From IMG/VR virus record IMGVR_UViG_3300032038_000053, positions 13,788-77,787 of that record: a stretch of 64,000 nucleotides of DNA; one strand, written 5' to 3'. Under the pieces are notes generated by a model, which worked only from the letters and a program-made list of their open reading frames with translations, made no database searches and was not told where the DNA came from. Position 1 is the first letter of the stretch. Every line of letters starts with the position of its first letter. Origin of the DNA: a virus. Taxonomy: Duplodnaviria > Caudoviricetes. Positions 2,767 to 46,129 of this stretch are shown piece after piece. The position numbers and the translations under genes are program-made.

Positions 2767-4923
2767 TTAATCATTTACAGCATTACCTGATTTCTTGATC
2801 ACTGGCAATGCGGCTTTTGTTGCAGATGTGAAAGCACGAATGGATGATTTTGCATTATCAATATCTTCCTTTACTCCAGAATTCTTGAAATTCAGAATCA
2901 GATTATTAGTTGCATGAATCATCGATGTTAATACTTTCTTACCCTTATCGTCGAATTCGTTTGTCTTGATTGCTCTAGCTAATGTCTTACTGAGCTTCTT
3001 TCCATCTTCATTTACAGATTCAACAATTTGCTTTAATGATTTCTTTTCATCGTTCAAATCACCTAATACTTTACGAAGATCAATTTCTACTTGGGAAGCA
3101 ACGGATGTTGCTGCTTCTAGTGATAGATCATCCCCACCAGTAGGTGTTGTACCAACAGCTCCAGCACCATCATTCAAGAATTCTTTTAGCTGACCAATTG
3201 GCATGGTCTTAACCTTTTCAGTAGCTTGTGCAATCAGATCATCCATTGACATATTATCAATATCGAGATCGCCCATTTCGCCAGTCTTAGAAGATGTGTC
3301 ACCCATATCATCGGTTGGTGTTGTGTCAGGAATATCTGTGGAGATATCATCAAGAGATGCTGCTGGATTACCCATATCTAATTCTGATGGATTATCCATA
3401 CCACCACCAAGATCATCACCACTAGGTGTATCCATATCAGGTGTTGATAAGTCACCACCCATATCACTACCAGGTGTGTTCATATCGGGAGTTGACATAT
3501 CTGTACCATCCATAGCAGAATCAAGATTACTAAATGTATCATCAACATTGTTGTCAAATGTTGGAGTTGTACTCATCAAATCTGGATTTGCTGTATTTGC
3601 TTCAGTTGCACTTGCAACATTATCAGCAATTTGTTGTGAAACATCATTCGTTGTTGCAGTTGACATATCTTCTGGTGCTGGTGCATTTGCATCTGGAGCA
3701 GGAGCAGCCGTTGGATCTGGTGCGGGAGGTGCTGCTGTAGTATCACCACCAGGAGCTGGAGCAGCATTAGGATCAGGAGCAGGAGCTGCTGTTGGATCTG
3801 CACCAGTATTGAAATCAATTGCTTCTTGATAGTAATTTAATGATCTACCACGAATCGGAACAAATGCTTCTTGTATCTTCTTTTCTTCCGATTTCTTGAA
3901 ATCCTTTTTGCAAACAAGATTCATCTTATCGAAATCTTTCTTTTCGACCTTGATGTTCTTGTATTGATGCTCTCCCTTACTATCGGATTCTTCTTTCGAC
4001 ATCTTCTTCTTCAATTCATCAATGTTTTCAATCTTGCCATTCTTTCCTTGACGAACAAGTCTTGTTTGGATTGACCATACAACGTGGTATGGTTTATTCA
4101 TTCCATCCACATCAAACTCAACAGCAACCACATACTTATCCATGACTGTTGGAACAATCACACGAACAGGAGTTGCAAGATCCCATACATCATTATTATA
4201 CAATTCACGACGATAACCATCTCTAATCAGTAGACCACGAAGGGCTTCACCAAGATTTTCAAAAGCATTCAAATTGTTTGCAACATTTAATGCGTGAATC
4301 TGATTTAAACTTAATTCATTTCGATTATTTAATTCAAAGAATACAGGAAGTTTTGCAATGTAATGTTTTGATTCTGGTTTATCCAAATGAAGTGGACCAA
4401 GGTCACACATGATTGTTGCAGGAACACGTTCATCTGTAATATGCATCATATCATTGCCAAACAATCCTTCTTGTACGATATAAGCATGATAATCTTCATA
4501 ACGACGGGTTGCATATTCGAATACACGTGCATCGTATGACTGATTGCTTTCACGATGAAACCGTTTAACTTTCTGCATTCCTTCTTGATAAAAATCTTCA
4601 AATGTTTTTTCTTTTGAATACGCTTCTGTTGCAATTGCTTGAACGTCCATGGGGATATCTACAATTCTTCCAGAAGTAACGTCCATCTCTACAAGATCCA
4701 ATTCAATATCATCTTCAATTGGGATATTGATGACTGGTCGTTCACGGTGTATGTTTTCACCCTCATTAGTTAATTCGTCCATTTCAGCAAATAGATGTGC
4801 GTATTCCAAAATCGCATTATCCAGCTCTTGCTCTTCTGTACTGCCCAATTCTTGTTCTTGAACATGAAACGCTTTTACTTCTTTTTCTTTTTTCGCAATT
4901 TCTTGCCTTAAGAAATTTAGCAT
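2767..4923 (-). CDS. putative head/inner-virion protein with Pro/Ala/Asp-rich linker
   Basis: 718 aa; DPTAAPAP and DMSTPD-like repeats; several xQE motifs. Confidence 0.6.
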   Translation of the reverse strand: MLNFLRQEIAKKEKEVKAFHVQEQELGSTEEQELDNAILEYAHLFAEMDELTNEGENIHRERPVINIPIEDDIELDLVEMDVTSGRIVDIPMDVQAIATEAYSKEKTFEDFYQEGMQKVKRFHRESNQSYDARVFEYATRRYEDYHAYIVQEGLFGNDMMHITDERVPATIMCDLGPLHLDKPESKHYIAKLPVFFELNNRNELSLNQIHALNVANNLNAFENLGEALRGLLIRDGYRRELYNNDVWDLATPVRVIVPTVMDKYVVAVEFDVDGMNKPYHVVWSIQTRLVRQGKNGKIENIDELKKKMSKEESDSKGEHQYKNIKVEKKDFDKMNLVCKKDFKKSEEKKIQEAFVPIRGRSLNYYQEAIDFNTGADPTAAPAPDPNAAPAPGGDTTAAPPAPDPTAAPAPDANAPAPEDMSTATTNDVSQQIADNVASATEANTANPDLMSTTPTFDNNVDDTFSNLDSAMDGTDMSTPDMNTPGSDMGGDLSTPDMDTPSGDDLGGGMDNPSELDMGNPAASLDDISTDIPDTTPTDDMGDTSSKTGEMGDLDIDNMSMDDLIAQATEKVKTMPIGQLKEFLNDGAGAVGTTPTGGDDLSLEAATSVASQVEIDLRKVLGDLNDEKKSLKQIVESVNEDGKKLSKTLARAIKTNEFDDKGKKVLTSMIHATNNLILNFKNSGVKEDIDNAKSSIRAFTSATKAALPVIKKSGNAVND

Positions 4924-5165: not shown

Positions 5166-7109
5166 ATGAAAGGAGAATGCTTGATGATTGTCATCGAAAA
5201 ATATGAGAAGCAGGTATTTGATGTTTACATGACATCGCACCCCAATGCCGATCCTAATAAGGTTCGTGCATTAATTTCTCAGATGACACAAAAGAATTTT
5301 GTCGACATCCCGTGTGTGATGGACAATAACATTCGTCATGAAACTGAACACACAACTGTCGCAAATGTATTTGATTGGCTTGAACAACGTAAACCAATCA
5401 TATCCAGTAACGGTACCTTCTTCAAACAACATGCTGAATACCTGTCACCAACTGTTTTGTTCTTGGAGACATTAGGTAATGAACGTAGCAGTGAGAAGAA
5501 ATTGATGTATCAATTCCCAAAGGGATCTGCTCCATACGTTATGCATTATACTGGACAAGGTAACATTAAAGTCATTATGAACTCGGATTATGGTGGGTCT
5601 GGAACCCCACTCTCACCCTTCTATTCTATGTATATTCCACCGGCTACAACTGGCAGTGCCAAGAACATGACGACTACCTTAATTTGTTGTCTGGAGCTCT
5701 TATCTGGCAATGAAGATCCATGGGCAAAGTTGAATGGAATCAATGAATTGTATGATCTGATTTATAAGGTTTTAACCACAGATGTGTCCGATCGAAAGTT
5801 AATGGTTCATGATCGATTCTCAACAAAGCAAGTTGTGGAATATCTCATTAAGAAAGTAAACAACCCAACCATCACAGATATTAGATATCTCACACAGTTT
5901 GTAGACGGTTTGAGTGATGACTTAAAATGCAGATTGATGTTGGCGTATAATCTCAGATTTGTGTTAACACAATATCTTTCCGGATATGTTGGAAACATTA
6001 TGAGATATCTTAAAGCACATCGGTTAGATACTAATAACATCACAAAAGAGACCATTCAGTCAAGTGGTTATGGTGTGGAACCTCCGGAAGAAATTAAAGA
6101 AGATTTGGACTTTGTGAAACAGTTCATTCTTGATAATTGTTTGTATCATTATTTGGTAAATGATGCAGAAGTACGTGCAACACAAATGGAAAGATTGTGT
6201 GTATGTGTCACAGATACTGATTCATTAATGGTTCATTTCGCATCGTTCTTGGACGAATTTCAAGCACGTGTTCCATCGTATCGTGATTCCTGTTTGATTG
6301 CATCTGCATTTGGGTTCCGCCTGTTTATTGAAGCAATCATTCCTAAGATGGTAGAAGATATTGCCAATTATCGTGGAATCCAAGATAAGTACTATCGTGA
6401 CAAGTTCATATTCAAGAATGAGTTCGCATTCTTAGCAATGTCATTGTTTGCGAAGAAAATGTATTCCGCATCATGTTTTGTTCAAGAAGGAAATCCACGT
6501 AACATTCATGAGATCCAAGTAACTGGTTTGTCATTTAAGAAACGTGCATCTGCAGAATTCTTAGAACCAATTATGGTAGATTTGTATGACAGGTATGTGT
6601 TAACTCCTGATAAAATTCAGGTGGGAAAATTGTTGGATGAGTATTATGCATTAAGAGAACGATTGATGGAAGTGGTTGATAAAGATGCGTCATATCATCA
6701 GGTCATGGGCATCAAGGCAATCGAATCATATACAAAATCCAAGACACTTCCGAAACAGATGCGTGGAATGATCATATGGAATGCCATGTTCCCTGATGAA
6801 GAAATATTACCAATGGATCGTGTCACAGTTATTCCAGTATCATTCGAATTGATGGAGAAACATCGTAACATTCCATTATTAGCAAAGGTATTGGAATTAT
6901 GTTTAGTAGATAATCCGAAGAAGAAGGATTCGTATATTAGTCTTCCTGAGACGTATAAGGAAATTCCTGATTGGTTACGTCCTGGCATTGATAAAGACTA
7001 TTGTGTTGACAAGTTACTTTCACCATTCAAGCAGTTGCTTGGTTTGTTTGATGTGATGATGACAGATCGAGCTGGTGGAATGTATCCGAGTCGCATGATA
7101 TTCTTATAA
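5166..7109 (+). CDS. family B DNA polymerase, catalytic part of a split phiKZ-type polymerase
   Basis: motif B KVIMNSDYG and motif C VTDTDS; no exonuclease domain or DxxSLYP motif A seen in this ORF. Confidence 0.85.
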   Translation: MKGECLMIVIEKYEKQVFDVYMTSHPNADPNKVRALISQMTQKNFVDIPCVMDNNIRHETEHTTVANVFDWLEQRKPIISSNGTFFKQHAEYLSPTVLFLETLGNERSSEKKLMYQFPKGSAPYVMHYTGQGNIKVIMNSDYGGSGTPLSPFYSMYIPPATTGSAKNMTTTLICCLELLSGNEDPWAKLNGINELYDLIYKVLTTDVSDRKLMVHDRFSTKQVVEYLIKKVNNPTITDIRYLTQFVDGLSDDLKCRLMLAYNLRFVLTQYLSGYVGNIMRYLKAHRLDTNNITKETIQSSGYGVEPPEEIKEDLDFVKQFILDNCLYHYLVNDAEVRATQMERLCVCVTDTDSLMVHFASFLDEFQARVPSYRDSCLIASAFGFRLFIEAIIPKMVEDIANYRGIQDKYYRDKFIFKNEFAFLAMSLFAKKMYSASCFVQEGNPRNIHEIQVTGLSFKKRASAEFLEPIMVDLYDRYVLTPDKIQVGKLLDEYYALRERLMEVVDKDASYHQVMGIKAIESYTKSKTLPKQMRGMIIWNAMFPDEEILPMDRVTVIPVSFELMEKHRNIPLLAKVLELCLVDNPKKKDSYISLPETYKEIPDWLRPGIDKDYCVDKLLSPFKQLLGLFDVMMTDRAGGMYPSRMIFL

Positions 7110-8975: not shown

Positions 8976-10628
8976 GTGCATATTCAAATGAAGAGTAAAC
9001 CCGAAGTAGTCAATAAGTCCCTGTTCTATCTGTATGATCCTGAAGAGACGTACACGTATAATGTGCATCATGGTACGGAGTATCCGTATCATGGTTTTCC
9101 CAAAGGTGCAGATGGACAGGTGTACAAGAAAACAAGATTCATCGAATGGGAACCGATTCCAGAAGATGTGATTATGCGTTATCTTGGACCGCAAATCATT
9201 GTCAATTTTGAAGCATTATTCCCTGGAGATGTAATTGATCCCGCAATTCAAATCTTCCAATTGCGTAGTAAGAGACCCGAGATTCAGAATCTCATCTGTG
9301 AACAGATTAACTTCTTCACAGCGTTGTATGATGATGATAATGATTTGTTGACATCGATGTTGGTTGCGAAGTACAAGACAGATTCTCAGACGTATACCAT
9401 TGCCACATTTGATGAATTCTATAAGGATATTTATGACACATTATTCCCTCCAAGAACTTTGGAAAAGATTGAAAAGATGGTGTCTGAGAATAATGTCGGC
9501 GATAATGTTGTTGGTTTGTTTCCTGTGGACTTTACTCACGATATGTACAAGGTATCATTTATGATTAAGATCATGCACATCTATGTGGAACACTTCATCC
9601 TTTCAACAGGTAATGTTCCCAAGGATCTGTATGAGTTGTTTGCACGTGCATTCACACACATCATGAACAATATCAATCCCAACATGTATATCTTACTCTA
9701 TAACTATGCAAACACAAGAGTCTTACAGACTATTGCATCTAATCAGGCAATCTATGAAATGAGAGCGATTGATGGTGTAACAGCACCGACTACCACACAG
9801 CATCTGATGAGAAAGACATTAATTTGTGATGGTTTGATTAAGCTCACATTTGCATCCGAATGGGATCCCATCCAGAAACGTCCAACGTATTCTTGTGTGG
9901 GATTGATTAAGTCTATTGTCAATCGGTATACCAATAACACTCGTAAAATGCAATTGAGATATTCGTTGATCAATGTTGATGGTGATATCTCACAATTGTT
10001 GGCTGATAATGTTGGTAGTAATGCGCCAATCTCCGTATTGCGCTCTTTCAATCCTGGTGAATACAGTTGCATGTTTAAGGATCTGAATATCATCATTGGT
10101 CAAATCATTTTGGAAATTGATATTGAACCTGTTGATTGGTATTTGGAAAATCTTGTACAAATGAATGATCTTTCAAGAATCTTGGTTGACACCGTGTTGT
10201 ATAATAAGTTTCATTCTTCATTATCGACAAACACATTGACCATGAAGCAGAAGTATATCATTCTGCTGTATGTCCGTCATATGATTATGGATATCTATAC
10301 TTTATCTGAAGAAGATACCATTTCACATCCATTGATTAATATCATCATGGGCAAAGTAACCAATACGTCTACAAAGACATTAACTCCCAAGGATTTAAAT
10401 GGCGTTAAGAAATATGTCAAGTTGAATAATCTGAGAGAGTATCTGTTGTCTGAAAAGAATGTCAATGTGTATGTGGAAAAGATCATTCAGTGTGTGTTAT
10501 CAAACTATACCATTGTCAATCATAATGATCCGTCATTACTGAATACTCCCCTGCTTTATGATTCAGGAAATATGACGGTTGCATTATTGGATATGATTGT
10601 ATCACTCTTTGAAGTGATGAGAACGTAA
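8976..10628 (+). CDS. conserved-type jumbo phage protein; candidate sigma-like promoter-specificity subunit of non-virion RNAP
   Basis: 550 aa, helical, directly upstream of beta'-N; size similar to phiKZ gp68/AR9 gp226. Function is inference only. Confidence 0.35.
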   Translation: MHIQMKSKPEVVNKSLFYLYDPEETYTYNVHHGTEYPYHGFPKGADGQVYKKTRFIEWEPIPEDVIMRYLGPQIIVNFEALFPGDVIDPAIQIFQLRSKRPEIQNLICEQINFFTALYDDDNDLLTSMLVAKYKTDSQTYTIATFDEFYKDIYDTLFPPRTLEKIEKMVSENNVGDNVVGLFPVDFTHDMYKVSFMIKIMHIYVEHFILSTGNVPKDLYELFARAFTHIMNNINPNMYILLYNYANTRVLQTIASNQAIYEMRAIDGVTAPTTTQHLMRKTLICDGLIKLTFASEWDPIQKRPTYSCVGLIKSIVNRYTNNTRKMQLRYSLINVDGDISQLLADNVGSNAPISVLRSFNPGEYSCMFKDLNIIIGQIILEIDIEPVDWYLENLVQMNDLSRILVDTVLYNKFHSSLSTNTLTMKQKYIILLYVRHMIMDIYTLSEEDTISHPLINIIMGKVTNTSTKTLTPKDLNGVKKYVKLNNLREYLLSEKNVNVYVEKIIQCVLSNYTIVNHNDPSLLNTPLLYDSGNMTVALLDMIVSLFEVMRT

Positions 10629-12169: not shown

Positions 12170-14125
12170 ATGATCACAAGAGAAGAACTGGATATGTACA
12201 CGAAGGCATATACAGCAGGAACGCCTATTATTACAGATGAGGAATTTGACAAACTGCTGGAAGAGTATGTATCCAAGAATGGCGAAGAAGCAAGACCGTT
12301 TACACGTAACAAGCAGAGTGCAGCAATCAATGATGTTGTAGGAACATTACCCAAAGTTCACGGTGTCAAAGAACCCATGAGACCCGGACAGAAGACTTAT
12401 GCAGACTGGGTAGATAGTTTATTGAATCATGGCGTATGTGACGATGTTACGGTAATTGTACAGGTCAAGTATGACGGATGCAGCATTGCCTTGGATGTCA
12501 AGACTGGTAGATATTTCACCCGTGGAGATTATGACAATGGCGAAAGCATGGATGTCACGGAGTTGTTTGGCCGTCGTGTATCCATGCATGGAGATGCAAA
12601 TGATTTTGCTGGATTGATGTCCGTTAAGTTTGAAGCAATTATGTCCGAAGAAGCATTCCATGAATTAGGACTTGATCAGAAATATGTGAATGCAAGAGCA
12701 GCCACATCTGCCATCATCATGTCTCGTGATAAGAAATTGGCTCAGTATATCTCCTTACAACCGTTACGTTGTTACTATGCTGATGGTGGCATGACAATCC
12801 CAGAGGAACTGGGACGACTCAGTGTGATCTGTTCCTTGGATGCATTTGATATCATCCAGAATTTCATCGATGAAAAATTAGCAGATGGCGCAAAGGTATT
12901 GGTTTGTAAAGAAGGGCCATATGCAATTACCAATGCGCATTATGCAATTGATGGTGTTGTCGTATCTGTATTGGAAAACGATCATAGTTGTGAATTGATG
13001 AAACCTCACATGGAGATTGCCATTAAGATTCTCAACAATATTAAAGAGACAAAGATTATTGATATTGAATGGCAAATGGGAAAGACTGGTAAGATTACAC
13101 CTGTTGGTATTCTGGAACCTGTAACATTCGATAATGGGGTCACAGTGGATCATGTTAGTTTATCTACATTTGATCGTGTTTATAACTTGGGATTGCATTA
13201 TGGAGATACCGTCAGAGTGATGCATAACATTGTGCCATATCTCTTGGACAGTAAACATGATGGGTGTATGATTATTCCATTACCAACTAGCTGTCCGATT
13301 TGTGGTTCTCCACTCGATACGTCAAATCTCAAAACAGTTCGTTGCACCAATCCCAATTGTAAGAATAATAAACTTGGCGATATCATTCGTTATTGTGAGA
13401 ACATGAAGATGATGGGAATCTCCAAGGGTATCTTGTCGAAGTTATATGATTTGGGTTATGTCAGAACGATTGCTGATCTGTATACGATCAATTATGAAGA
13501 ATTAGCATTAGAACGTGGGTTTGCAACAACATCTGTTCGTGCATTACAAGATTCAATTAGAAAAGCATCCGTTAATGTTCCATTGGAAAGATTCCTGTCT
13601 GCGTTGCCATGCACCAATGTATCAAAGAAGACATGGAGAATGATTTTGGATTCCCGTGTCAATCAGACATTCATGGAGACAGGAGATGGTGAAACAGAAC
13701 AGCATATTTGTGATGCATTAGTCGAAGAATCACCTAACAACTTCTTGAAACTCATTACCGGATTCACATATGGTGTTGGCGATACGACATGGAAAGCAAT
13801 TCACTTTGGGATCCGCACCTATTGGGGTGACATTTCCCGTGCCGCATATAATGTTGCTTTTCAAGTTAATTATCTGACCGATGATGATAGAAATAGTAAT
13901 GGACTCGTGTGCTTCACTGGACATCGTGATCGTGACTTGGCAGCTTTGCTTGCACAGAATGGTTATGACGTAACTGATGATTTGACAAACAGCTGTGTTG
14001 CCCTGGTAATTCCGGATGAAGGATATTTCTCATCTAAGGTGAAGAGAGCAATCAAGAAAGGTATCCCGATTTTGACAATTGATTCTGCAACATCCAATTT
14101 GAATAGTATGCATAAGATTGTGTAA
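12170..14125 (+). CDS. ligA: NAD-dependent DNA ligase
   Basis: KYDG adenylation motif, TRGD, IDGVVV, GKTGKITPV, Cys4 zinc finger, C-terminal BRCT (CFTG). Confidence 0.95.
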   Translation: MITREELDMYTKAYTAGTPIITDEEFDKLLEEYVSKNGEEARPFTRNKQSAAINDVVGTLPKVHGVKEPMRPGQKTYADWVDSLLNHGVCDDVTVIVQVKYDGCSIALDVKTGRYFTRGDYDNGESMDVTELFGRRVSMHGDANDFAGLMSVKFEAIMSEEAFHELGLDQKYVNARAATSAIIMSRDKKLAQYISLQPLRCYYADGGMTIPEELGRLSVICSLDAFDIIQNFIDEKLADGAKVLVCKEGPYAITNAHYAIDGVVVSVLENDHSCELMKPHMEIAIKILNNIKETKIIDIEWQMGKTGKITPVGILEPVTFDNGVTVDHVSLSTFDRVYNLGLHYGDTVRVMHNIVPYLLDSKHDGCMIIPLPTSCPICGSPLDTSNLKTVRCTNPNCKNNKLGDIIRYCENMKMMGISKGILSKLYDLGYVRTIADLYTINYEELALERGFATTSVRALQDSIRKASVNVPLERFLSALPCTNVSKKTWRMILDSRVNQTFMETGDGETEQHICDALVEESPNNFLKLITGFTYGVGDTTWKAIHFGIRTYWGDISRAAYNVAFQVNYLTDDDRNSNGLVCFTGHRDRDLAALLAQNGYDVTDDLTNSCVALVIPDEGYFSSKVKRAIKKGIPILTIDSATSNLNSMHKIV

Positions 14126-25775: not shown

Positions 25776-25848
25776 TTGTGGAGAAGAGATTCGAACTCTT
25801 GCATGCATGCTCCAAGGGCATGTGTCTTCACCGCTTGACTACTCCACA
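25776..25848 (-). tRNA. tRNA-Gln(TTG), atypical C33
   Basis: 7-bp acceptor, Gln-type D loop, stem CATGC/GCATG with loop CCTTGGA, T loop TTCGAAT. Confidence 0.8.
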
Positions 25849-25859
25849 TTTTATATTGA

Positions 25860-25929
25860 TGGGCCTACAGAATCGAACTCTGATAACTCGGTTATGAGCC
25901 GAGGGGTCTAACCATTGATCTATAGGCCC
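25860..25929 (-). tRNA. tRNA with CAT anticodon (Ile2/Met type), T arm 2 nt short
   Basis: acceptor GGGCCTA/TAGGCCC, anticodon arm CTCGG-CTCATAA-CCGAG. Confidence 0.75.
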
Positions 25930-25984
25930 ATGGGCTAACATAGAAAAATTACAACGAAGGTGATACTCTATTGTTCATAGAGTA

Positions 25985-26220
25985 TCGACCGTCGAGGGAT
26001 GCTTCGTCCTCCGCAAACCGTCTGTCATTTCACGTCCGGCTGATCAAGCTACACGTTCAACGTGAATACACAGTGCATCTGACCTATCCTAATTCGTAGA
26101 CTATTCAACTTCTACCGGATACACGACACTTGGAGCTACCGCGTGTTGGAATTCAGCCTCCTCATTGCTCGAGCTCACATGCCTATTCATGTGGTATTTT
26201 TATGATTCAGCTTCGGTCGA
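25985..26220 (-). ncRNA. candidate structured ncRNA of unknown family
   Basis: GC-richer spacer between tRNAs closed by TCGACCG/CGGTCGA, with several nested helices; strand inferred from neighbours. Confidence 0.55.
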
Positions 26221-26250
26221 AAAAAATATCTTACCACCAATTCAGGTGGT

Positions 26251-26336
26251 TGGTGCCGGATACAAGATTTGAACTTGCATGCTACAATAGCGCTCCGTCT
26301 TAAGCGGAGTGTGTCTGCCAATTTCACCAATCCGGC
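26251..26336 (-). tRNA. tRNA-Leu(TAA)
   Basis: cloverleaf with long variable arm, loop CTTAAGA, encoded CCA. Confidence 0.93.
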
Positions 26337-26406
26337 ATATGTGGAGATTGGGGGTCTCCACATCGCGAAAAGGATTAACGCCCGAAAGCATGTTGTTAAT
26401 CCCGAG

Positions 26407-26491
26407 CGCTGAGGGTGGGATTCGGACCCACGGGCCGTTAGGCACAGAAGATTTCAAGTCTACGCTCTTATGACCACTTGAGCACCTCAGC
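26407..26491 (-). tRNA. tRNA-Ser(TGA)
   Basis: acceptor GCTGAGG/CCTCAGC, loop CTTGAAA, long variable arm, G discriminator. Confidence 0.88.
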
Positions 26492-28954: not shown

Positions 28955-29039
28955 TGGTGCTGCTTGTGAGACTTGAACTCACACGTCTTTCGACACAAGA
29001 TCCTAAATCTTGCACGTCTGCCTATTCCGTCAAAGCAGC
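28955..29039 (-). tRNA. tRNA-Leu(TAG)
   Basis: loop TTTAGGA, long variable arm, encoded CCA. Confidence 0.93.
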
Positions 29040-29116
29040 TTCATCCCGGATGGTAGTCAAGCATCCGGGTTATTACGAAAGGAAGGCTCATCTACAATGG
29101 CAGGTCATCGTAGATA

Positions 29117-29192
29117 TGGCGCCCACTGATGGACTTGAACCATCGACGCATCGGTTAACAGCCGATTGCTCTACCGTCTGAGCTAAGCGGGC
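29117..29192 (-). tRNA. tRNA-Asn(GTT)
   Basis: canonical cloverleaf, loop CTGTTAA, encoded CCA. Confidence 0.95.
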
Positions 29193-29305
29193 AAAAAGAC
29201 GGTGGTATGTTTTCATACCACCGGACAGAACAAACTAATTTTACTTTAAAGGAGTCTAAAAGCTAAGAAAAATTTAAAAAGGAAATCTTATTATGAATAA
29301 AGCTT

Positions 29306-29441
29306 TTCTGAGAATATTGGCAACTGGAATACCAATTTAATGATTTTAGATGCCAAACTGGTAAAAGCATCATGCATCAGACGTTGAATGGAGCGATGCT
29401 ATGTATGTGAAAAAGAAGTAGCCAGTTGCTCTGCATCAGAA
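29306..29441 (-). ncRNA. Y RNA (Yrl)-like element, copy E
   Basis: TTCTGA-TGCAG-AGCAACTGG-CTACTTC ... CCAGTTGC-CAATATTC-TCAGAA. Confidence 0.7.
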
Positions 29442-29500
29442 ATTATAAAAACATATTCTAGTTCGAGAGGGTTTGAATATGCGTTTATCGTATTTAATAG

Positions 29501-30103
29501 TTACCAAGTAAATGCGTAACCAAGACCGTTCTTGAGATCAGAACGAAGGGGATCTGCAAATGTTGCCTTGTTTTCCAGACCGTTTACAGTAACAATTGCA
29601 AACTTCTGTGTTGGTTCAGCTGTTACAGGTGTTACTTTTGCAGCAAAGATGTAATTAGTACCCTTCACTACCTGAGTACCTAACAGAGCAAACGGCTCAA
29701 CCTTAGAACCAACAAAGCCTTCGAAAGTCTTATCGAATACAGTCTTTGCATCTTCGGAGATTTCAGTCTTGACATCAACAACTGTTCCACCAAGACCAGT
29801 ACCACCTTCAACAACTCTTTCGATATTGACAATTGCAAAGTCGTTGCCCTTTTCATTGAGAATTACCAGAACAACATTCTTGGTATCTCTACCAGTGATA
29901 ACAACTTGTTCTGCGAGAATGGCATGATTTGTACCATTCACAACCTGAGAACCAAGATAAGCAATTGGTGTATACTGAGCACCAAGCAGCTCACCAAGCT
30001 TTTCAGTAAATGCGGAAGAAACTGTAGCAACCTTCTGTGGCATTGAGCCTGTTGTCATATCGACAATCTCGACATTCCATGTACCTACTGACATATGAAT
30101 CAT
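29501..30103 (-). CDS. tandem cystatin-like (QxVxG) two-domain protein
   Basis: internal duplication: LGSQVVNGTNHAILA and LGTQVVKGTNYIFAA. Confidence 0.6.
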   Translation of the reverse strand: MIHMSVGTWNVEIVDMTTGSMPQKVATVSSAFTEKLGELLGAQYTPIAYLGSQVVNGTNHAILAEQVVITGRDTKNVVLVILNEKGNDFAIVNIERVVEGGTGLGGTVVDVKTEISEDAKTVFDKTFEGFVGSKVEPFALLGTQVVKGTNYIFAAKVTPVTAEPTQKFAIVTVNGLENKATFADPLRSDLKNGLGYAFTW

Positions 30104-30129
30104 CTCCTAAAATAAATAAATTTAATAAA

Positions 30130-30209
30130 GTCTGAGAATAATACAATTGGCGTTAGATGTAACCGAATAAATGTTTCTGTTAGAAGTATCCAATTGTGCT
30201 GCATCAGAC
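30130..30209 (-). ncRNA. Y RNA (Yrl)-like element, copy D (minimal)
   Basis: GTCTGA-TGCAG-CACAATTGG-ATACTTC ... CCAATTGT-ATTATTC-TCAGAC. Confidence 0.7.
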
Positions 30210-30221
30210 ATCTATTTTGAA

Positions 30222-30305
30222 TTCGAGCATTTTGATATCGGTTTGGCTATAGATAGTGTTGGCAACATATAAATCTTTTGAAGTAACCGATAATCCTGCT
30301 TCGAA
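30222..30305 (-). ncRNA. Y RNA (Yrl)-like element, copy C
   Basis: TTCGA-AGCAG-GATTATCGGTTACTTC ... AACCGATATC-AAAATGC-TCGAA. Confidence 0.65.
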
Positions 30306-30571
30306 ATTCATTTTAAATTAACTGAGATGGCCGTATCTCATTCTAGGAGGTCAACCTGATGGACTATGATTATGCGTGTAAGAATATAAATCATCCAACC
30401 ATCTCAGTTTGTGGTAGCTGTTTTTTCCTGTCTTTAACGCCCTCTTCGATAAACAGCCAAAACGTCATGCGCCCGTCTTTTCAACTTGCTGGCCACCAAG
30501 CGATAGGCCGAACCCACATCCTATCCCGTACCCCTCGCAGCTTCCTTCTAATGATACTTTCTCGCATCACA

Positions 30572-32245
30572 TTATTGTGATGCTTCTATATTATCCCATT
30601 GCTTAATGTATTCGTTTGCAAATGAGATTTCTTTGCCAGTCCAACCAGTCATGATTGCACAACGATAAGCCATGATTGGCATTACAGTATTGTCATAACC
30701 AGCTGTCTGAATACAAAATACATTCAGCTTTGGATTAATCTTTTTACGATATGTTTGGATTAACTTGTATACATCGATGTGCTGTCTACCGGTAAAACGT
30801 GGTCCACATCCATATCCCATCTTTGAATATGCAGCAATATCGGAATGTTCACCATACAATCCACCAGTACCAGCTTGCATATCGGAATAAATAAAGAGAT
30901 TGTCAATGTGTTCTTTGTTCTTAATAGCACGCCATAAGTATTTCCAAATACCACCTTCGGTTGCTCCGCCAACATCATCACATTGACCCTTATCAATCTT
31001 ATGAGCCTGACTCAGAACACCCTTTCTCTTTGAGATTGGATATGCAATATACCGATCACCAAACTTAACAGCATCCCCTTCATCAGAACAAGCGCATGCC
31101 AATACAGCTGACAGATTGTCAATATTGGCAACACGAACAATTCCATATTCCGATACAAATCTACCCCAAGCAGATCCACTATTATCAGACAGAGCAACTG
31201 TTCTACCACTCAGATGTGGAAAGTTATCAACGGCAATATCAATGCATTCTTCCAAAGCATCTAAAATCATTTGTTTGTGATTGATCACATCTGTACATTC
31301 ATCAATCGCTGTATAAGCGGATGAATAACGGAACGGGAATTGTTTACCATCTGGAACTCCATCTTTCAGTTTCTGTAAGATACGTTTACAAGTATCCATA
31401 TCACTGATTTCTTTGAAGATGTTACGGAGGTTTCTCAATAATGCCATATGACCAATATCAATTGTGTGAAGAATATCAGCCCATGTTGCACCATCGGATC
31501 TCAACTGTTCCCATGTCTTTTGTTCATTAACCACGTTAACAGTACCAGTCTTCATCAGCTCGTTAATGACTGTTGAATTGGCATGGCATAAACGAACAGT
31601 ATTGATCATGCCGATTTCGAAGTTTTTATATTTGTTAATCTGAACAGGTGATAATGCCTCCAAACGATCTGCCATAGAACGTTTCAAAATAGAAGGCATT
31701 TGATTCTTCTTACCATCATTCAGCCATAAATAATAAGCAGCTTGCATTGCTGGTTCATCAGGTCTTTTCATTACCTTATATTCTAACTGTCTGAACAAAC
31801 CAGGATGTGTTTTGTTGAATTCAGCACGTTTTGGATGAAGTGCTGCACGAACCATGATGACCTGAGGATTCAATCTCATGTAATAAGTATTGCGTAAATG
31901 AACTGCCAAACGAATTGTCGCTTCATAATCATAATCCAGCGCTTTGTCAATCACATCGGTGAAGAATTCAGTTGCTGTCTTTTTATTGTATTCCGGGAAT
32001 AATGCATCAGTAATCAGATCATCAATCAAATATACGGAATCATGTGAATAATGAAATCCACCACTACTACAATAGAATCCGCCACTACGATAATACTGTG
32101 CTTCTCCAAAGATGGAAGAAGCTGCAACAAGCTGTAATGTCTGAATGGGATTTAATTTGTAACTAATTCCATTCATAAAGTTTGTTGTAGCACCAAGGGA
32201 TTCTTCTTTTTTCTGATTAGAGACTGCTCTTGAAATCTTACTCAT
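30572..32245 (-). CDS. rsr: Ro60/TROVE-domain RNA-binding protein with vWA domain
   Basis: HEAT-like TROVE region (LRNTYYMRLNP, HMALLRNLRN, KQFPFRY) and MIDAS SDNSGS; C-terminal IQTAGY. Confidence 0.92.
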   Translation of the reverse strand: MSKISRAVSNQKKEESLGATTNFMNGISYKLNPIQTLQLVAASSIFGEAQYYRSGGFYCSSGGFHYSHDSVYLIDDLITDALFPEYNKKTATEFFTDVIDKALDYDYEATIRLAVHLRNTYYMRLNPQVIMVRAALHPKRAEFNKTHPGLFRQLEYKVMKRPDEPAMQAAYYLWLNDGKKNQMPSILKRSMADRLEALSPVQINKYKNFEIGMINTVRLCHANSTVINELMKTGTVNVVNEQKTWEQLRSDGATWADILHTIDIGHMALLRNLRNIFKEISDMDTCKRILQKLKDGVPDGKQFPFRYSSAYTAIDECTDVINHKQMILDALEECIDIAVDNFPHLSGRTVALSDNSGSAWGRFVSEYGIVRVANIDNLSAVLACACSDEGDAVKFGDRYIAYPISKRKGVLSQAHKIDKGQCDDVGGATEGGIWKYLWRAIKNKEHIDNLFIYSDMQAGTGGLYGEHSDIAAYSKMGYGCGPRFTGRQHIDVYKLIQTYRKKINPKLNVFCIQTAGYDNTVMPIMAYRCAIMTGWTGKEISFANEYIKQWDNIEASQ

Positions 32246-32280
32246 ATGGATATTCCTCCTACATAAATAAATTTATAAAA

Positions 32281-32441
32281 AATTCCGAGAATATTAGAAA
32301 GAGTTTTTATGGGCACTAGAGGCCATCTAGTTTTCGTGGCTAAGTTTTACATGTATATGCCACGTTTACATGGAGCTTTCGGCTCAGAGAAGAGTAAATC
32401 CTATTATCTTCTGAAGTAACTCTTTTCTCTGCTTCGGAATT
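32281..32441 (-). ncRNA. Y RNA (Yrl)-like element, copy B
   Basis: AATTCCGA-AGCAG-AGAAAAGAGTTACTTC ... AACTCTTTCT-AATATTC-TCGGAATT, enclosing four hairpins. Confidence 0.72.
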
Positions 32442-32448
32442 ACTGGAT

Positions 32449-32559
32449 ATGTGTGAGAATGTTGGACCTGTTTCTTGTAGGACTCGAACCCACATAGTTA
32501 CCTAAACACAGTAATGATTAACCATAAATCGAAGTAACAGAGTCCTCTGCTTCACACAT
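32449..32559 (-). ncRNA. Y RNA (Yrl)-like element, copy A, with tRNA-like cloverleaf
   Basis: same terminal motif enclosing D arm GATT-TATGGT-AATC, anticodon-like arm TTACT-GTGTTTA-GGTAA and T arm GTGGG-TTCGAGT-CCTAC. Confidence 0.78.
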
Positions 32560-32597
32560 TGGTCGAAGTGACAGGGCTTGAACCTGCGGCCTCTCGT
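32560..32597 (-). pseudogene. 3' half of interrupted tRNA-Pro (variable loop, T arm, acceptor strand, ACCA)
   Basis: ACGAG-AGGCC-GCAGG-TTCAAGC-CCTGT-CACTTCG-ACCA; acceptor strand pairs with 5' half at 33555..33590. Confidence 0.8.
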
Positions 32598-32617
32598 TTT
32601 GAATATTGTTAAATTTA

Positions 32618-32692
32618 TCGGGATAACCCGGATCGAACGGGCACGATGTCCAAATCCCAAATTTGGCGGCCTACCAGTTGGCCCATATCCCG
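32618..32692 (-). tRNA. tRNA-Pro(TGG), intact
   Basis: CGGGATA/TATCCCG acceptor, CCAAA-TTTGGGA-TTTGG anticodon arm, no encoded CCA. Confidence 0.9.
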
Positions 32693-32693
32693 T

Positions 32694-33506
32694 TCAATTT
32701 TCTTCATAAAACTTCCAGTGAAATCCACCAGATGTTTCACATCTATTGTGACAACATTCACCGATATTTGTTCTATCGGCTCCTGTAAATTCAGCTGCTT
32801 GTTTTATTAAATTATAGATAACACCTGTCTCAACACAAATTACAGGTTTTCTGGTTTTAGCAGTTCGCATTCCAAAACTGTTATTGTCTAATAAAGAAAT
32901 CCATTCCAAATTCTTAAGATGATTATGCTCCTTTATCTCATCAATATGATTGATTCCCAGAATTTTCATATCATCTATTGGATTAAATGTTTCCATAACA
33001 ACTCTGTGTATGCTAACATTCTTCTCGAACCCAAAATCACATAGTTGAACACGAGAATACCCTTTCTTACTCAAAGCGGGTTTTAATATTATATTATTCC
33101 TTAGAGATCTAATACGACCATGATCTGATACCTGATAATTTTCGAAATCTTTTATAGGTCTCCATTCTTCAATATCTTCAACCCATCTCAAATTATCATA
33201 ATTAGAGTTTCTGGTGTCACCATCAATATGTTCAATTTTAGCAAAATGATCAACTAATTCTTCAGGTGGAGTAACAAATGCTCTACCAACTAATTCATCT
33301 ATTGGAAAATATCTTATATTGAATTCTGGAAATATTGAGTTTCTGGAACGTAATAAAAGTGCTATGAAATCATATCCGTTTGATGAATGATACGATGCAC
33401 AAACAGGTTCATCGTCAATATTAGATTCTGTTCGAATTCTACCGTAATTTGATATAAGAAATCCATCAGCAATTTCTGGATGCTGTAATTTTCTCCAAAC
33501 TTCCAT
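32694..33506 (-). CDS. HNH homing endonuclease (tandem NUMOD4-HNH units plus C-terminal NUMOD1-like HTH)
   Basis: EVWR..ISNYGRIR..EHIDGDTRNSNYDNLRW; EEWRPI..VSDHGRIR..NHIDEIKEHNHLKNLEW; KPVICVETG. Confidence 0.9.
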   Translation of the reverse strand: MEVWRKLQHPEIADGFLISNYGRIRTESNIDDEPVCASYHSSNGYDFIALLLRSRNSIFPEFNIRYFPIDELVGRAFVTPPEELVDHFAKIEHIDGDTRNSNYDNLRWVEDIEEWRPIKDFENYQVSDHGRIRSLRNNIILKPALSKKGYSRVQLCDFGFEKNVSIHRVVMETFNPIDDMKILGINHIDEIKEHNHLKNLEWISLLDNNSFGMRTAKTRKPVICVETGVIYNLIKQAAEFTGADRTNIGECCHNRCETSGGFHWKFYEEN

Positions 33507-33590: not shown

Positions 33591-33682
33591 AAACAAAACA
33601 TGCTTCATCACATTGCTTTGTAATTATTAGTAATATATGATGTAAAAATAAAAAATAGATGGGGGCAATTGCCCCCACCAAA

Positions 33683-43834: not shown

Positions 43835-46129
43835 TTATTCGCCAATATTGTCCTTTGATTCATATGATGAGTTATTAAATTGCTCCCAGCAATGTTCTAA
43901 TTCTTGATAAATCTGTTTATGAGAATAATCTTTGCACTTGTTATAGAATTGCTTCATAAACTTATTTCCAAGATCTGTTAATTCATCAGAATTTAATACA
44001 GAATTTTCATCAAGCTCTTTCATCTCACGTTTTCCATCAGGTGTTAACAAACCATGTTTACTTAAGAATTTATAAACTTCTTTCATTCGTTTGATTGCTT
44101 CTTTTTCGGATTCACCGTTATTAACATGCCATTCGATTGCATCATACTTTTCAAATTGCTGATCGGAGAAGTAATTCTTTCTTGCAAATGTAATGGTTTT
44201 GATGGTGTTATCGCTATTAACCTTGACAGAGACAGACATAATCTTGGATACTAATTCACCGTTTGTTTCAGTAATATCTAATGCTTTCTTACTAATGTTA
44301 TCTACCTTACCAGGGAATACAATCGATCGATCTAACTCTACTTCAATATCTTTCACAATTGTAACAGATACACATTTACCATTTTCATATTGAACAGTAA
44401 ATTTTCCATAATCATCAACATCGGTTTTACCACGTTTAGGTGATCCATATTTATCTTCCAACTTTTTTTGAACTTTGGATTGTGTATCACCAAACTTGAT
44501 ATCTCCAACTTTTTCGCATGGCTTTACTTCAATTTTCAAATCCTGTTCACTAATATATCTTTTTTCTCTGGATTTTTCTCCATCACCTTGATTATATGAT
44601 TCATCCATCTCTTGATAATATTCTTTCAATTCGCCAGTTGTTGGATCAATGTAATATTCTTCTTCATATCCAAAATGATCATGATCTTCAGCAACAACAT
44701 CTGGTTCTACCTCAATTGGATCTAATGATGTGGAAATTGTTGACACTGATGATGATCCATGTTCATAACGATTAATCAATTCATTTGCACGTACTTTGTA
44801 TGCATTAATCAATTCAGTTTTCAATGAACGCTTTTGAACTCCCTGATCAACCAACAATCTATATTTTGGATCTCCTTCATCTTTTGCAATCATTAATGCA
44901 ACAACTGCTGTTGCAATATTCATTACTGTATCATCCGTATATTTCATACCGTTAATTTGTACACCGTTCTTTTCTGCTAATTTTTGTAATTCTTGTTGTT
45001 TACGAAGCTTCATCATGAGTTCTCCGACTTTTGCAAATATCTCATCATCCATAGATGGTTTTGATGCGGGTATCTCAGCTTTGATGATTGTAACATCTTC
45101 CATGATTGTTGTATCACCATCATCAATATCTTCATTAAATGAATTAAAGAACCATAATTTTTTTGCAATATCACGAGCATGACGAATGACAACGTGTTGT
45201 GATCTTTCAGATTCACTAATCATGTCTTGTTGTAAACGATTCATCAACTTAACTGTTTTCTTGATCAAAAAACTATTCTTCTTTTTGGAATGCTTTAATT
45301 CTTTGATATTCTGCTCAATTTGAGTAATATCATCTTCAACGATTCTTTGCATTCCTTTGTAAGAACGATTTTCATGCGATGAATGCATCACCTCATCTTC
45401 ATCTTGTTTTTCGAAAAAATCATGACGCATGTTTTTCAAATCACCAAAGATACTTTCTAATTCTTCAACGACTTGTTCTTTATCCATACGATGCATCAAT
45501 TCTTTATATAGATGCTCCAAATCTTTTGCAGAATCAGCAATAGCACTATAGTACTTATTCTCTGCATCAGACGTTTTCTTGTATTCTTCTAGTTTCTTAC
45601 TTGCTTGAATACGAGTTGCTGATTCTCCGTATACAGTATCTTTGTGATTATTTACACCAGGAGGATCACCAACAGATTCACCTTCGAAATCTACATCGTC
45701 ATCGTCATCATCATCTTCTTCTTTTTCATCTTCTTTTTCATCTGATTCATCTTCATCGTCGTCATCCGATTCTTCATCATCAGAATCATCATCTTTATCC
45801 TTTTCCTTATCCTTGTCTTTTTTCTTTTTGGATTTCTTTTTCTTTTTATCATCATCTTCATCGTCATCATCTTTGTCGGATTCTTTATCCAACTCTTTCT
45901 CTTCGTCTTCATAATCTTCATCATCCACATCTACATCAACGTCTTCTATCTCAGTATCAGGACGATCATCGTCATCATATTTATCATCATACTTTTCTTT
46001 TATTTCATCATCATCTTTTGCTTCTTGATAAAATAAAGAACCATTATAACGATTTGGTCTCTTCTTTTTCTTGCTATTTTCTTTTTCTAGCAATTCCAAA
46101 GTATCTCCGAAATCAATCATTACCGACAC
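43835..46129 (-). CDS. putative virion protein with long D/E/K low-complexity tract
   Basis: 764 aa; FYQE, YYQE motifs. Confidence 0.7.
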   Translation of the reverse strand: MSVMIDFGDTLELLEKENSKKKKRPNRYNGSLFYQEAKDDDEIKEKYDDKYDDDDRPDTEIEDVDVDVDDEDYEDEEKELDKESDKDDDDEDDDKKKKKSKKKKDKDKEKDKDDDSDDEESDDDDEDESDEKEDEKEEDDDDDDDVDFEGESVGDPPGVNNHKDTVYGESATRIQASKKLEEYKKTSDAENKYYSAIADSAKDLEHLYKELMHRMDKEQVVEELESIFGDLKNMRHDFFEKQDEDEVMHSSHENRSYKGMQRIVEDDITQIEQNIKELKHSKKKNSFLIKKTVKLMNRLQQDMISESERSQHVVIRHARDIAKKLWFFNSFNEDIDDGDTTIMEDVTIIKAEIPASKPSMDDEIFAKVGELMMKLRKQQELQKLAEKNGVQINGMKYTDDTVMNIATAVVALMIAKDEGDPKYRLLVDQGVQKRSLKTELINAYKVRANELINRYEHGSSSVSTISTSLDPIEVEPDVVAEDHDHFGYEEEYYIDPTTGELKEYYQEMDESYNQGDGEKSREKRYISEQDLKIEVKPCEKVGDIKFGDTQSKVQKKLEDKYGSPKRGKTDVDDYGKFTVQYENGKCVSVTIVKDIEVELDRSIVFPGKVDNISKKALDITETNGELVSKIMSVSVKVNSDNTIKTITFARKNYFSDQQFEKYDAIEWHVNNGESEKEAIKRMKEVYKFLSKHGLLTPDGKREMKELDENSVLNSDELTDLGNKFMKQFYNKCKDYSHKQIYQELEHCWEQFNNSSYESKDNIGE

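Follow-up and report, generated by a model that had tools for sequence, protein, structure and literature searches.

The Ro60 gene and the elements beside it

The DNA analysed here, called the window, is a stretch of 64,000 nucleotides (nt) from a virus of the Caudoviricetes (IMG/VR record IMGVR_UViG_3300032038_000053, positions 13,788 to 77,787 of that record). It carries a gene for a homologue of Ro60, with five similar structured elements, E1 to E5, beside it. Ro60, which serves RNA quality control, is a conserved protein and one of the major autoantigens in humans, and Y RNAs are its obligate partners. The five elements are probably genes for Y RNAs that partner this Ro60, members of a divergent branch in Bacillota and large phages that Rfam does not capture. 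Along the minus strand, and with scores from a covariance model (R2) described below, the features are:

32450-32558, minus strand: Y-like RNA E5, the shared frame around an unpermuted tRNA-like cloverleaf (R2 50.7 bits, E 6e-9)
32282-32440, minus strand: Y-like RNA E4, 5' sequence UCCGAAGCAG, multi-hairpin interior of 109 nt (R2 59.3 bits, E 7e-11; fold z -3.7)
30572-32245, minus strand: Ro60/TROVE protein gene, 557 amino acids (aa), HEAT-repeat ring plus vWA domain that bears DNSGS as its MIDAS (metal-ion-dependent adhesion site) motif
30220-30307, minus strand: Y-like RNA E3, 5' sequence UUCGAAGCAG, 3' sequence AUGCUC, short interior (R2 57.7 bits, E 1.5e-10)
30129-30210, minus strand: Y-like RNA E2, 5' sequence CUGAUGCAG, interior of 32 nt (R2 64.9 bits, E 4e-12; fold z -3.0)
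29305-29442, minus strand: Y-like RNA E1, 5' sequence CUGAUGCAG, two-hairpin interior of 87 nt (R2 51.6 bits, E 4e-9; fold z -2.5)

E5 and E4 lay upstream of the Ro60 gene and E3, E2 and E1 downstream, all on the minus strand and within 1.2 kb of it, and about 35 nt separated the end of E4 from the Ro60 start codon. A first-pass annotation, made by a model from the sequence, had reported five minus-strand elements around a Ro60 gene; its coordinates for the elements agreed with the present ones within 1-2 nt.

By domain content, motif and predicted fold, the open reading frame (ORF) at 30572-32245 is a Ro60 homologue, as the first-pass annotation had named it. It matched Pfam TROVE (30.9 bits; cut-off 23) and PHROG 850, 'RNA-binding protein' (6e-41), and a profile of 12 sequences homologous to it matched the Ro60 structure of Thermus phage phiLo (9KOP; 2.5e-12). 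The MIDAS residues D354-N-S-G-S358 were invariant among the 12 homologues and aligned to DVSGS of phiLo Ro60. With an AlphaFold model of moderate confidence (pLDDT 67), the best 12 Foldseek matches were all Ro60 structures and all full-length (9KOP, 1e-15; 2NVO, 5.5e-11; 1YVP, 2.8e-10; also 9L5Y and human Ro60), followed by vWA domains. Metagenomic relatives of the protein numbered in the thousands. A search of viral contigs with the single protein returned no match, and the profile of 12 homologues was required.

Frame, family and linkage to Ro60

Each of the elements folded singly into an outer stem, an asymmetric internal loop, an inner stem and a variable interior. The outer stem had 5-8 bp and ended in G-A/U-C; the internal loop had (A/U)GCAG on its 5' side and about 7 nt ending in AU(U/G)C on its 3' side; the inner stem had 8-9 bp and was followed by UACUUC and an interior of about 30-110 nt. 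The motifs GA(A/U)GCAG, UACUUC and AU(U/G)CUC therefore read exactly as first described. Stem sequences varied among E1-E5 with complementarity kept, and the interiors were unrelated in sequence, both as previously noted. The 5' motif was UCCGAAG in E4, UUCGAAG in E3, CUGAUG in E1 and E2, and GUGAAG in E5.

The pattern GCAG-N7-13-TACTTC occurred 6 times in the window (0.26 expected), and 0 of 100 shuffles reached 6. The sixth occurrence (10250-10266) had neither a model match nor a matching structure and was attributed to chance.

An initial set of homologous Ro60 loci contained the GCAG-TACTTC pattern throughout, in several copies each. With the 12-homologue profile, bacterial assemblies then supplied 80 homologous loci and viral contigs 68. 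A MAFFT alignment of E1-E5 over their whole length could not be used for the interiors or for the 3' end of E3. Bulges hid many copies from hand-written stem scanners, and covariance models were used instead. The first of these, R1, had a seed of 7 well-aligned copies and a structure of the two stems only; E1 and E4, which were outside the seed, were recovered (E 3e-6 and E 4e-6, respectively). R1 gave 66 matches in the bacterial-assembly loci and 163 in the viral-contig loci, on the Ro60 strand in every case (66/66 and 163/163) and mostly less than 1 kb from the gene. The bacterial-assembly loci included Ruminococcus, Oscillospiraceae, Lachnospiraceae, Acetatifactor muris DSM 23669, Bacillus sp. 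Brlt_9, Synergistaceae and a spirochaete metagenome-assembled genome (MAG), and some of the contigs classed as bacterial may be binned phages.

The second model, R2, was rebuilt from 146 matches. It scored E1-E5 at E 4e-12 to 6e-9 and found no other member in the window or in the 77.8-kb record; a match at 43916-43960 (E 0.015) was treated as chance. R2 gave 162 matches, all on the Ro60 strand, from 56 loci, of which 55 were viral contigs and one was locus L005. In whole-genome scans of two 6-Mb Bacillota genomes, a 2.7-Mb Ruminococcus MAG, a complete 170-kb phage and the 497.5-kb Bacillus phage G, R2 matches stood solely beside Ro60, in all five genomes. This exclusive, strand-specific linkage, directly observed, covered more than 200 copies in about 100 homologous Ro60 loci beyond the window, in Bacillota genomes and large phages; the scan of other TROVE loci proposed at first pass had hence found the same family, always on the Ro60 strand. 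The branch ranged over rumen and gut Clostridia, Bacillus, Synergistaceae and many phages of 130-500 kb. The largest arrays had 9 copies (L137) and 7 copies (L092 and Bacillus phage G), and the five of the window were a typical number for phage loci.

Phage G (JN638751.1; locus L158) had seven members around gp540 (TROVE), at 3757-4434, 2280-2435 and 9862-9926. Five of them stood close together in a 1,060-nt unannotated gap upstream of gp540, and none was annotated in GenBank.

Outside these matches, Bacteroides phage crAss001 (L162) gave weak R2 matches at 5292-6001 (best 31.5 bits, E 7e-5, plus three weaker), inside an unannotated 900-nt gap downstream of the TROVE protein Gp96, and in phage csAssE-Sib (L160) a weak match at 3317-3447 bracketed an annotated tRNA-Tyr upstream of a Ro sixty-related protein. 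A diverged form of the frame may therefore be present in crAss-like phages too.

Across the 146 copies the consensus was NNNNYGA-W-GCAG-N-[8 bp]-G-UUACUUC ... C-[8 bp]-RWUAUUC-UC-RNNNN, with G9, C10, U32, C34 and C37 invariant. The spacing between GCAG and UUACUUC was 9 nt in 116 copies, the 3' loop 7 nt in 133 and the 3' strand of the inner stem 8 nt in 135. The invariant blocks were mostly unpaired by prediction. A pairing of UUACUUC with a 3' partner or with a 5' GAAG was considered and rejected, as no partner was conserved, position W8 held either A or U with no covariation, and the block was mostly unpaired by prediction. A helix of fixed length between two invariant single-stranded blocks would fit a single protein-docking site.

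The differing but complementary stems claimed at first pass were borne out by the model-fitted alignment of the 146 members. All 15 modelled pairs varied on both sides, with 3-6 pair types each, and 94.9% of cells were paired, compared with 57.9% when shuffled and at most 48% with slid partners.

Bacterial Y RNAs have been recognised by a place within about 4 kb of Ro60, the same strand, the motif GNCGAAN0-1G near the 5' end and a tRNA-like domain, and the vertebrate 5' motif is GGUCCGA (Chen et al. 2014, PMC4201824). E1-E5 displayed the same strand, a position beside Ro60, a terminal stem and one tRNA-like member, and their 5' motif resembled CGAAG in part. In the family motif YGAWGCAG, GA was present in about 96% of copies, W was A or U at 50:50 and C preceded GA in only 34%; to judge by the sequences, the motif is related, not identical, to the two Y RNA motifs.

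The Y RNA kinship proposed at first pass fared differently in Rfam for the window and for its relatives. At gathering thresholds and at E <= 10, Rfam gave only tRNA matches in the window and neither Y_RNA nor YrlA; neither 29000-32900 nor the record as a whole matched YrlA (RF02553) at E <= 10, and the permuted tRNA-like core of YrlA (T arm, closed acceptor stem-loop, D arm) was present in none of E1-E5. Relatives reached 33-37 bits with RF02553 (gathering threshold 69). One of them, an element of phage G (L139:1280-1435), had the frame UACCUGA-AGCGG, an 8-bp inner stem, UUACUUC and the closing AAUAAUC-UCAGGUA, and this frame enclosed a T arm, a closed acceptor stem-loop and a D arm (YrlA 36 bits, E 1e-6 locally). 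The frame surrounded a YrlA-type core also in L092, L095 and L106.

Interiors, surroundings and possible roles

No relative was detectable among the other interiors for 98 of the 146. Between the window and locus L002, whose Ro60 gene was 89% identical in DNA, E2 was 96% identical, E5 87% and E3 72%, and the interiors of E1 and E4 could not be aligned. A T-arm hairpin was present in 41 of the 146 interiors, and ARAGORN called 11-18 of them as tRNAs, with at least 12 different anticodons.

The interior of E5 had the unpermuted order D arm, anticodon arm (loop GUGUUUA) and T arm, and was Asn-like (GUU). Its acceptor helix, GUUACUU/AAGAAAC, stacked on the inner stem without a break. It scored 30.0 bits as an Rfam tRNA at 32469-32538 (threshold 29); ARAGORN made no call at its default threshold and called Asn(gtt) at a relaxed threshold only. 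The L002 orthologue of E5 scored 51.2 bits as an Rfam tRNA and was called tRNA-Asn by ARAGORN. E5 departed from tRNA in U at position 37, an A-A mismatch in the acceptor helix, no CCA and no free acceptor end, and the acceptor 5' strand GUUACUU was constant in all mimics, whatever the anticodon. The tRNA-like members appear to be mimics and not working tRNAs, because they have no free end. A single putative docking frame carries YrlA-type permuted mimics, unpermuted mimics and many unrelated hairpin modules.

Interiors as antisense guides were considered and rejected: the longest match to the element's own Ro60 mRNA averaged 8.11 nt (controls 8.06 nt), without family-wide enrichment. Among interior antisense matches of at least 12 nt one alone was worth noting, a 15-nt perfect antisense of E1 (29364-29378) to the Ro60 mRNA (31257-31271). 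It was the sole outlier of 131 comparisons of an element with its own Ro60 (next 11 nt; maximum of 1048 controls 14), and could be chance or a lineage-specific autoregulatory contact.

The surroundings of the elements were:

33658-33679, minus strand: terminator-like hairpin, the upstream partner of 29200-29223
32618-32692, minus strand: tRNA-Pro(UGG) gene, just upstream of E5
30306-30571, minus strand: G+C-richer intergenic stretch of 266 nt between the Ro60 stop codon and E3
29501-30103, minus strand: ORF of 200 aa between E2 and E1, inside the Y array, with an internal tandem duplication
29200-29223, minus strand: intrinsic-terminator-like hairpin plus U run, closing the unit after E1
29117-29192: tRNA-Asn, after E1
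28955-29039: tRNA-Leu, after E1

The Y RNA-like elements were thus embedded in a run of tRNA genes, and E5 to E1 formed one terminator-bounded stretch of about 4.4 kb.

The halves of the 200-aa ORF aligned to each other at 3e-9, and each contained QVVxGTN, recalling the QxVxG loop of cystatins; a cystatin lead from the atlas was weak (score 0.88), and Pfam, NCBIfam and PHROG gave no match. A homologue with 70% identity likewise stood between Y RNAs in locus L118. The leaders of the Ro60 ORF (32246-32280) and of the 200-aa ORF (30104-30128), on the minus strand, shared a near-identical AT-rich block, AAATTTATTTAT, followed by G/T and next by a GGAG ribosome-binding site, directly after a Y element in both cases. 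This common block may be a translation-initiation or processing signal.

The stretch at 30306-30571 was about 95-97% identical to L002 and L003, where identity of the Ro60 gene DNA was 89%. It had long predicted helices and one compensatory change of C-G to U-A in a two-sequence fold, and no counterpart in more distant loci. A sixth Y RNA there was rejected, the stretch having no R2 match despite its high conservation in close relatives; it is a candidate separate structured RNA outside the Y-like family.

Directly upstream of E5, the minus strand at 32560-32617 resembled the 3' half of a tRNA (T arm and acceptor 3' strand ending in ACCA), close to an HNH/NUMOD4 endonuclease ORF at 32694-33506. 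Near related Ro60/Y arrays there were large structured RNAs (ROOL RNA with scores of 284 and 220 bits, a group I intron match below threshold and a tmRNA; L095 1381-2024, L099 1-476, L092 2668-2950, L139 8147-8458), and in related phages RNA genes were concentrated in one island. In the Ruminococcus MAG, a protein of the metallo-beta-lactamase fold (PF00753; L007 2558-3289), a fold that includes RNases Z and J, was divergent from the chromosomal Ro60/Y RNA locus.

The elements are placed as a divergent branch of bacterial Y RNAs because of their frame, their linkage to Ro60 and the YrlA-type domains in their relatives. We infer from these features that E1-E5 are expressed as discrete RNAs, bind Ro60 and act as adaptors. 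The 5' and 3' ends of each RNA would pair into a rigid frame that serves as docking site for the Ro60 of the neighbouring gene, with two invariant single-stranded blocks, 9 nt apart, read by one protein surface. The variable interiors would be the effector modules, in the manner of Y RNAs that tether Ro60 to PNPase. E5 would offer a whole tRNA-shaped module, and relatives YrlA-type permuted mimics or unrelated hairpins. The RNAs would probably be excised from a common precursor, as Ro60, tRNA genes and Y RNAs lie in one terminator-bounded unit. Docking of Ro60 on the frame is probable by analogy with Deinococcus radiodurans, Salmonella and phiLo, and the interiors may recruit or gate PNPase or tRNA-binding enzymes. 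The first-pass proposal of one Ro60 with five interchangeable RNA adaptors is plausible.

Several observations weighed against assigning E1-E5 to the Y RNAs. The canonical CGAA occurred in only 2 of the 5 elements (CUGAU in E1 and E2, UGAA in E5), and the window elements were without a Rfam Y_RNA or YrlA match even at E 10. A spacing of 6-35 nt from the Ro60 coding sequence would also fit cis-acting leader or trailer elements. The covariation counts came from an alignment fitted to the model and lean towards it, with a margin that was very large, and the E-values were rough, from a shortened calibration.

A wider role, with the frame as a cassette holder, was considered as well. Rapid diversification of the interiors by phages and Bacillota, as the 98 interiors without a relative and the divergence seen at 89% Ro60 identity would suggest, would supply 5-9 RNA baits, including tRNA cloverleaves with many anticodons, that point Ro60 and a recruited nuclease at different RNA-binding enzymes or defence nucleases. 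Such a modular decoy or adaptor system in a tRNA arms race is an unlikely extension of the Y RNA assignment.

Ro60-Y ribonucleoproteins (RNPs) could instead counter host anticodon nucleases, with the tRNA-shaped Y RNAs as decoys or as templates for tRNA repair or replacement. E5 and many relatives had full cloverleaves with intact anticodon-like loops, and the surroundings of the locus are a phage tRNA island. In Salmonella, Ro60 loci adjoin rtcBA (PMC7790460), and phage TROVE proteins have been classed with RNA-repair systems (Iyer et al. 2021, PMC7824862). However, neither this record nor two complete related phages yielded an RtcB, no RNA ligase was near Ro60 and the sole RNA ligase match in phage G lay about 300 kb from it, so that the link to rtcBA-type repair drawn at first pass was not recovered. 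Nor was the suggested link to host anticodon nucleases: the anticodons of the mimics, spread over the identities counted above, had no pattern and no bias to known nuclease targets. Moreover, 4 of the 5 window RNAs were not tRNA-like, and the same family occurred in bacterial chromosomes. This role seems improbable.

The elements might also be cis-regulatory leader and trailer parts of the Ro60 transcript, for autoregulation or stabilisation, and not free trans-acting Y RNAs. They share the strand of the gene and lie very near it, E4 just before the ATG; many relatives begin 6-20 nt past the Ro60 stop codon, the unit is a single terminator-bounded one, and E1 has the 15-nt antisense match to the Ro60 mRNA. 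Yet arrays comprised as many as 9 copies, to either side of the gene, with some copies 1-3 kb off and tRNA genes or ORFs between. Complete tRNA mimics stood among the interiors, antisense to the own Ro60 mRNA was not enriched in the family, and Y RNAs of M. smegmatis are themselves processed from a precursor upstream of rsr (PMC4201824). Regulation in cis is accordingly judged very improbable.

The elements could also have arisen as by-products of tRNA arrays, either as tRNA genes in decay or as RNase P/Z processing stems of leader and trailer, unrelated to Ro60; this is highly improbable. Despite interleaving with tRNA genes in phage loci and the T-arm hairpins and ARAGORN calls already given, most interiors were not tRNA-like, the invariant blocks lay outside the tRNA-like part, copies stood beside chromosomal Ro60 in L010 and L049 where no tRNA gene was detected, the Ruminococcus and Bacillus sp. 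genomes had only Ro60-adjacent matches, and the other tRNA cluster of the window (25776-26491) contained no copy.

Comparison with known Y RNAs

Bacterial and phage Ro60 with adjacent Y RNAs is already known. Chen et al. (2014, PMC4201824) reported 254 bacteria and 22 phages, and the phiLo paper (PMC12135203) credits that study with Y RNA-like non-coding RNAs in Bacillus phage G. Four features appear to be new: the frame as defined for this branch, the breadth of its occurrence among rumen and gut Bacillota and their large phages, the arrays of 5-9 copies, and the complete unpermuted cloverleaves within the Ro stem. No description of these four was found in the searched literature or in Rfam 15. 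What is known of the diversity of bacterial and phage Y RNAs has come mainly from a single covariance model, YrlA, and from a few tested species. That model missed a large branch with a sharply defined docking frame, with arrays well above the 2-4 copies known and with permuted and unpermuted tRNA mimics in one frame. R2 is a ready covariance model for annotation, for instance of the five unannotated copies upstream of phage G gp540, and phage G on Priestia megaterium is a culturable system for the function of phage Ro60 RNPs. The family is also a natural experiment in which the effector modules of Y RNAs evolve and the Ro60 site stays fixed.

YrlA and YrlB (Salmonella, Mycobacterium smegmatis and mycobacteriophages; PMC4201824; RF02553) resemble the present elements in location, no more than a few kb from Ro60 and on its strand, and in numbering at least 2 per locus; pairing of their 5' and 3' ends makes a Ro60-binding stem whose 5' strand has a CGAA(N)G-type motif. 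For YrlA the Rfam consensus has GGCGAAUGC on the 5' strand and later CUA, where this family has YGAWGCAG and UUAC. Both have a conserved YUAY just distal to the Ro stem (UUAC here) and at least 1 tRNA-like member per locus. In contrast, the GCAG, UUACUUC and AUUCUC blocks are specific to this branch, and its arrays have 5-9 copies and not 2. E5 is unpermuted, and its acceptor helix continues into the Ro stem; in the permuted YrlA it is the anticodon stem that leads into the Ro stem, and a loop closes the acceptor stem. The hairpin interiors of the family are analogous to YrlB and Yrn2.

Yrn1 and Yrn2 of D. radiodurans are likewise RNAs bound by Ro60 (Rsr) and are encoded upstream of rsr. Yrn1 resembles E5 in its unpermuted tRNA-like order, in which an 'anticodon arm' separates the D-like from the T elements (PMC4201824), and the proposed adaptor mechanism is modelled on its tethering of Rsr to PNPase. 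Unlike E5, Yrn1 has no complete D arm, and its 'anticodon' loop is 6 nt long; tRNA detectors accept E5 and its relatives, with 30-59 bits. No sequence similarity between this family and Yrn1 or Yrn2 was detected.

The Ro60 of Thermus phage phiLo (PMC12135203; 9KOP, 9L5Y) is the closest solved structure (TM 0.59/0.69). It too is a phage Ro60 with adjoining Y-like RNAs, Yrl1 and Yrl2, which have a stem, an internal loop, a second stem and a CGAA motif, and whose binding in vitro to Ro60 and to the host PNPase has been demonstrated (PMC12135203). The phiLo locus differs in having two RNAs, both upstream, and a protein of about 20% identity; its description mentions neither tRNA-like modules nor the present frame motifs.

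Metazoan Y RNAs (hY1, hY3, hY4 and hY5) share the terminal stem of the 5' and 3' ends, a Ro60 site at the junction of stem and loop, variable loops that recruit other proteins and several paralogues per genome. The 5' strand UCCGAAG of E4 is presumably identical to positions 7-13 of hY1. Metazoan Y RNAs differ in that their Ro60 site is a bulged helix and not a 5-6/7-nt internal loop, that they are Pol III genes, and that they carry no tRNA-like module.

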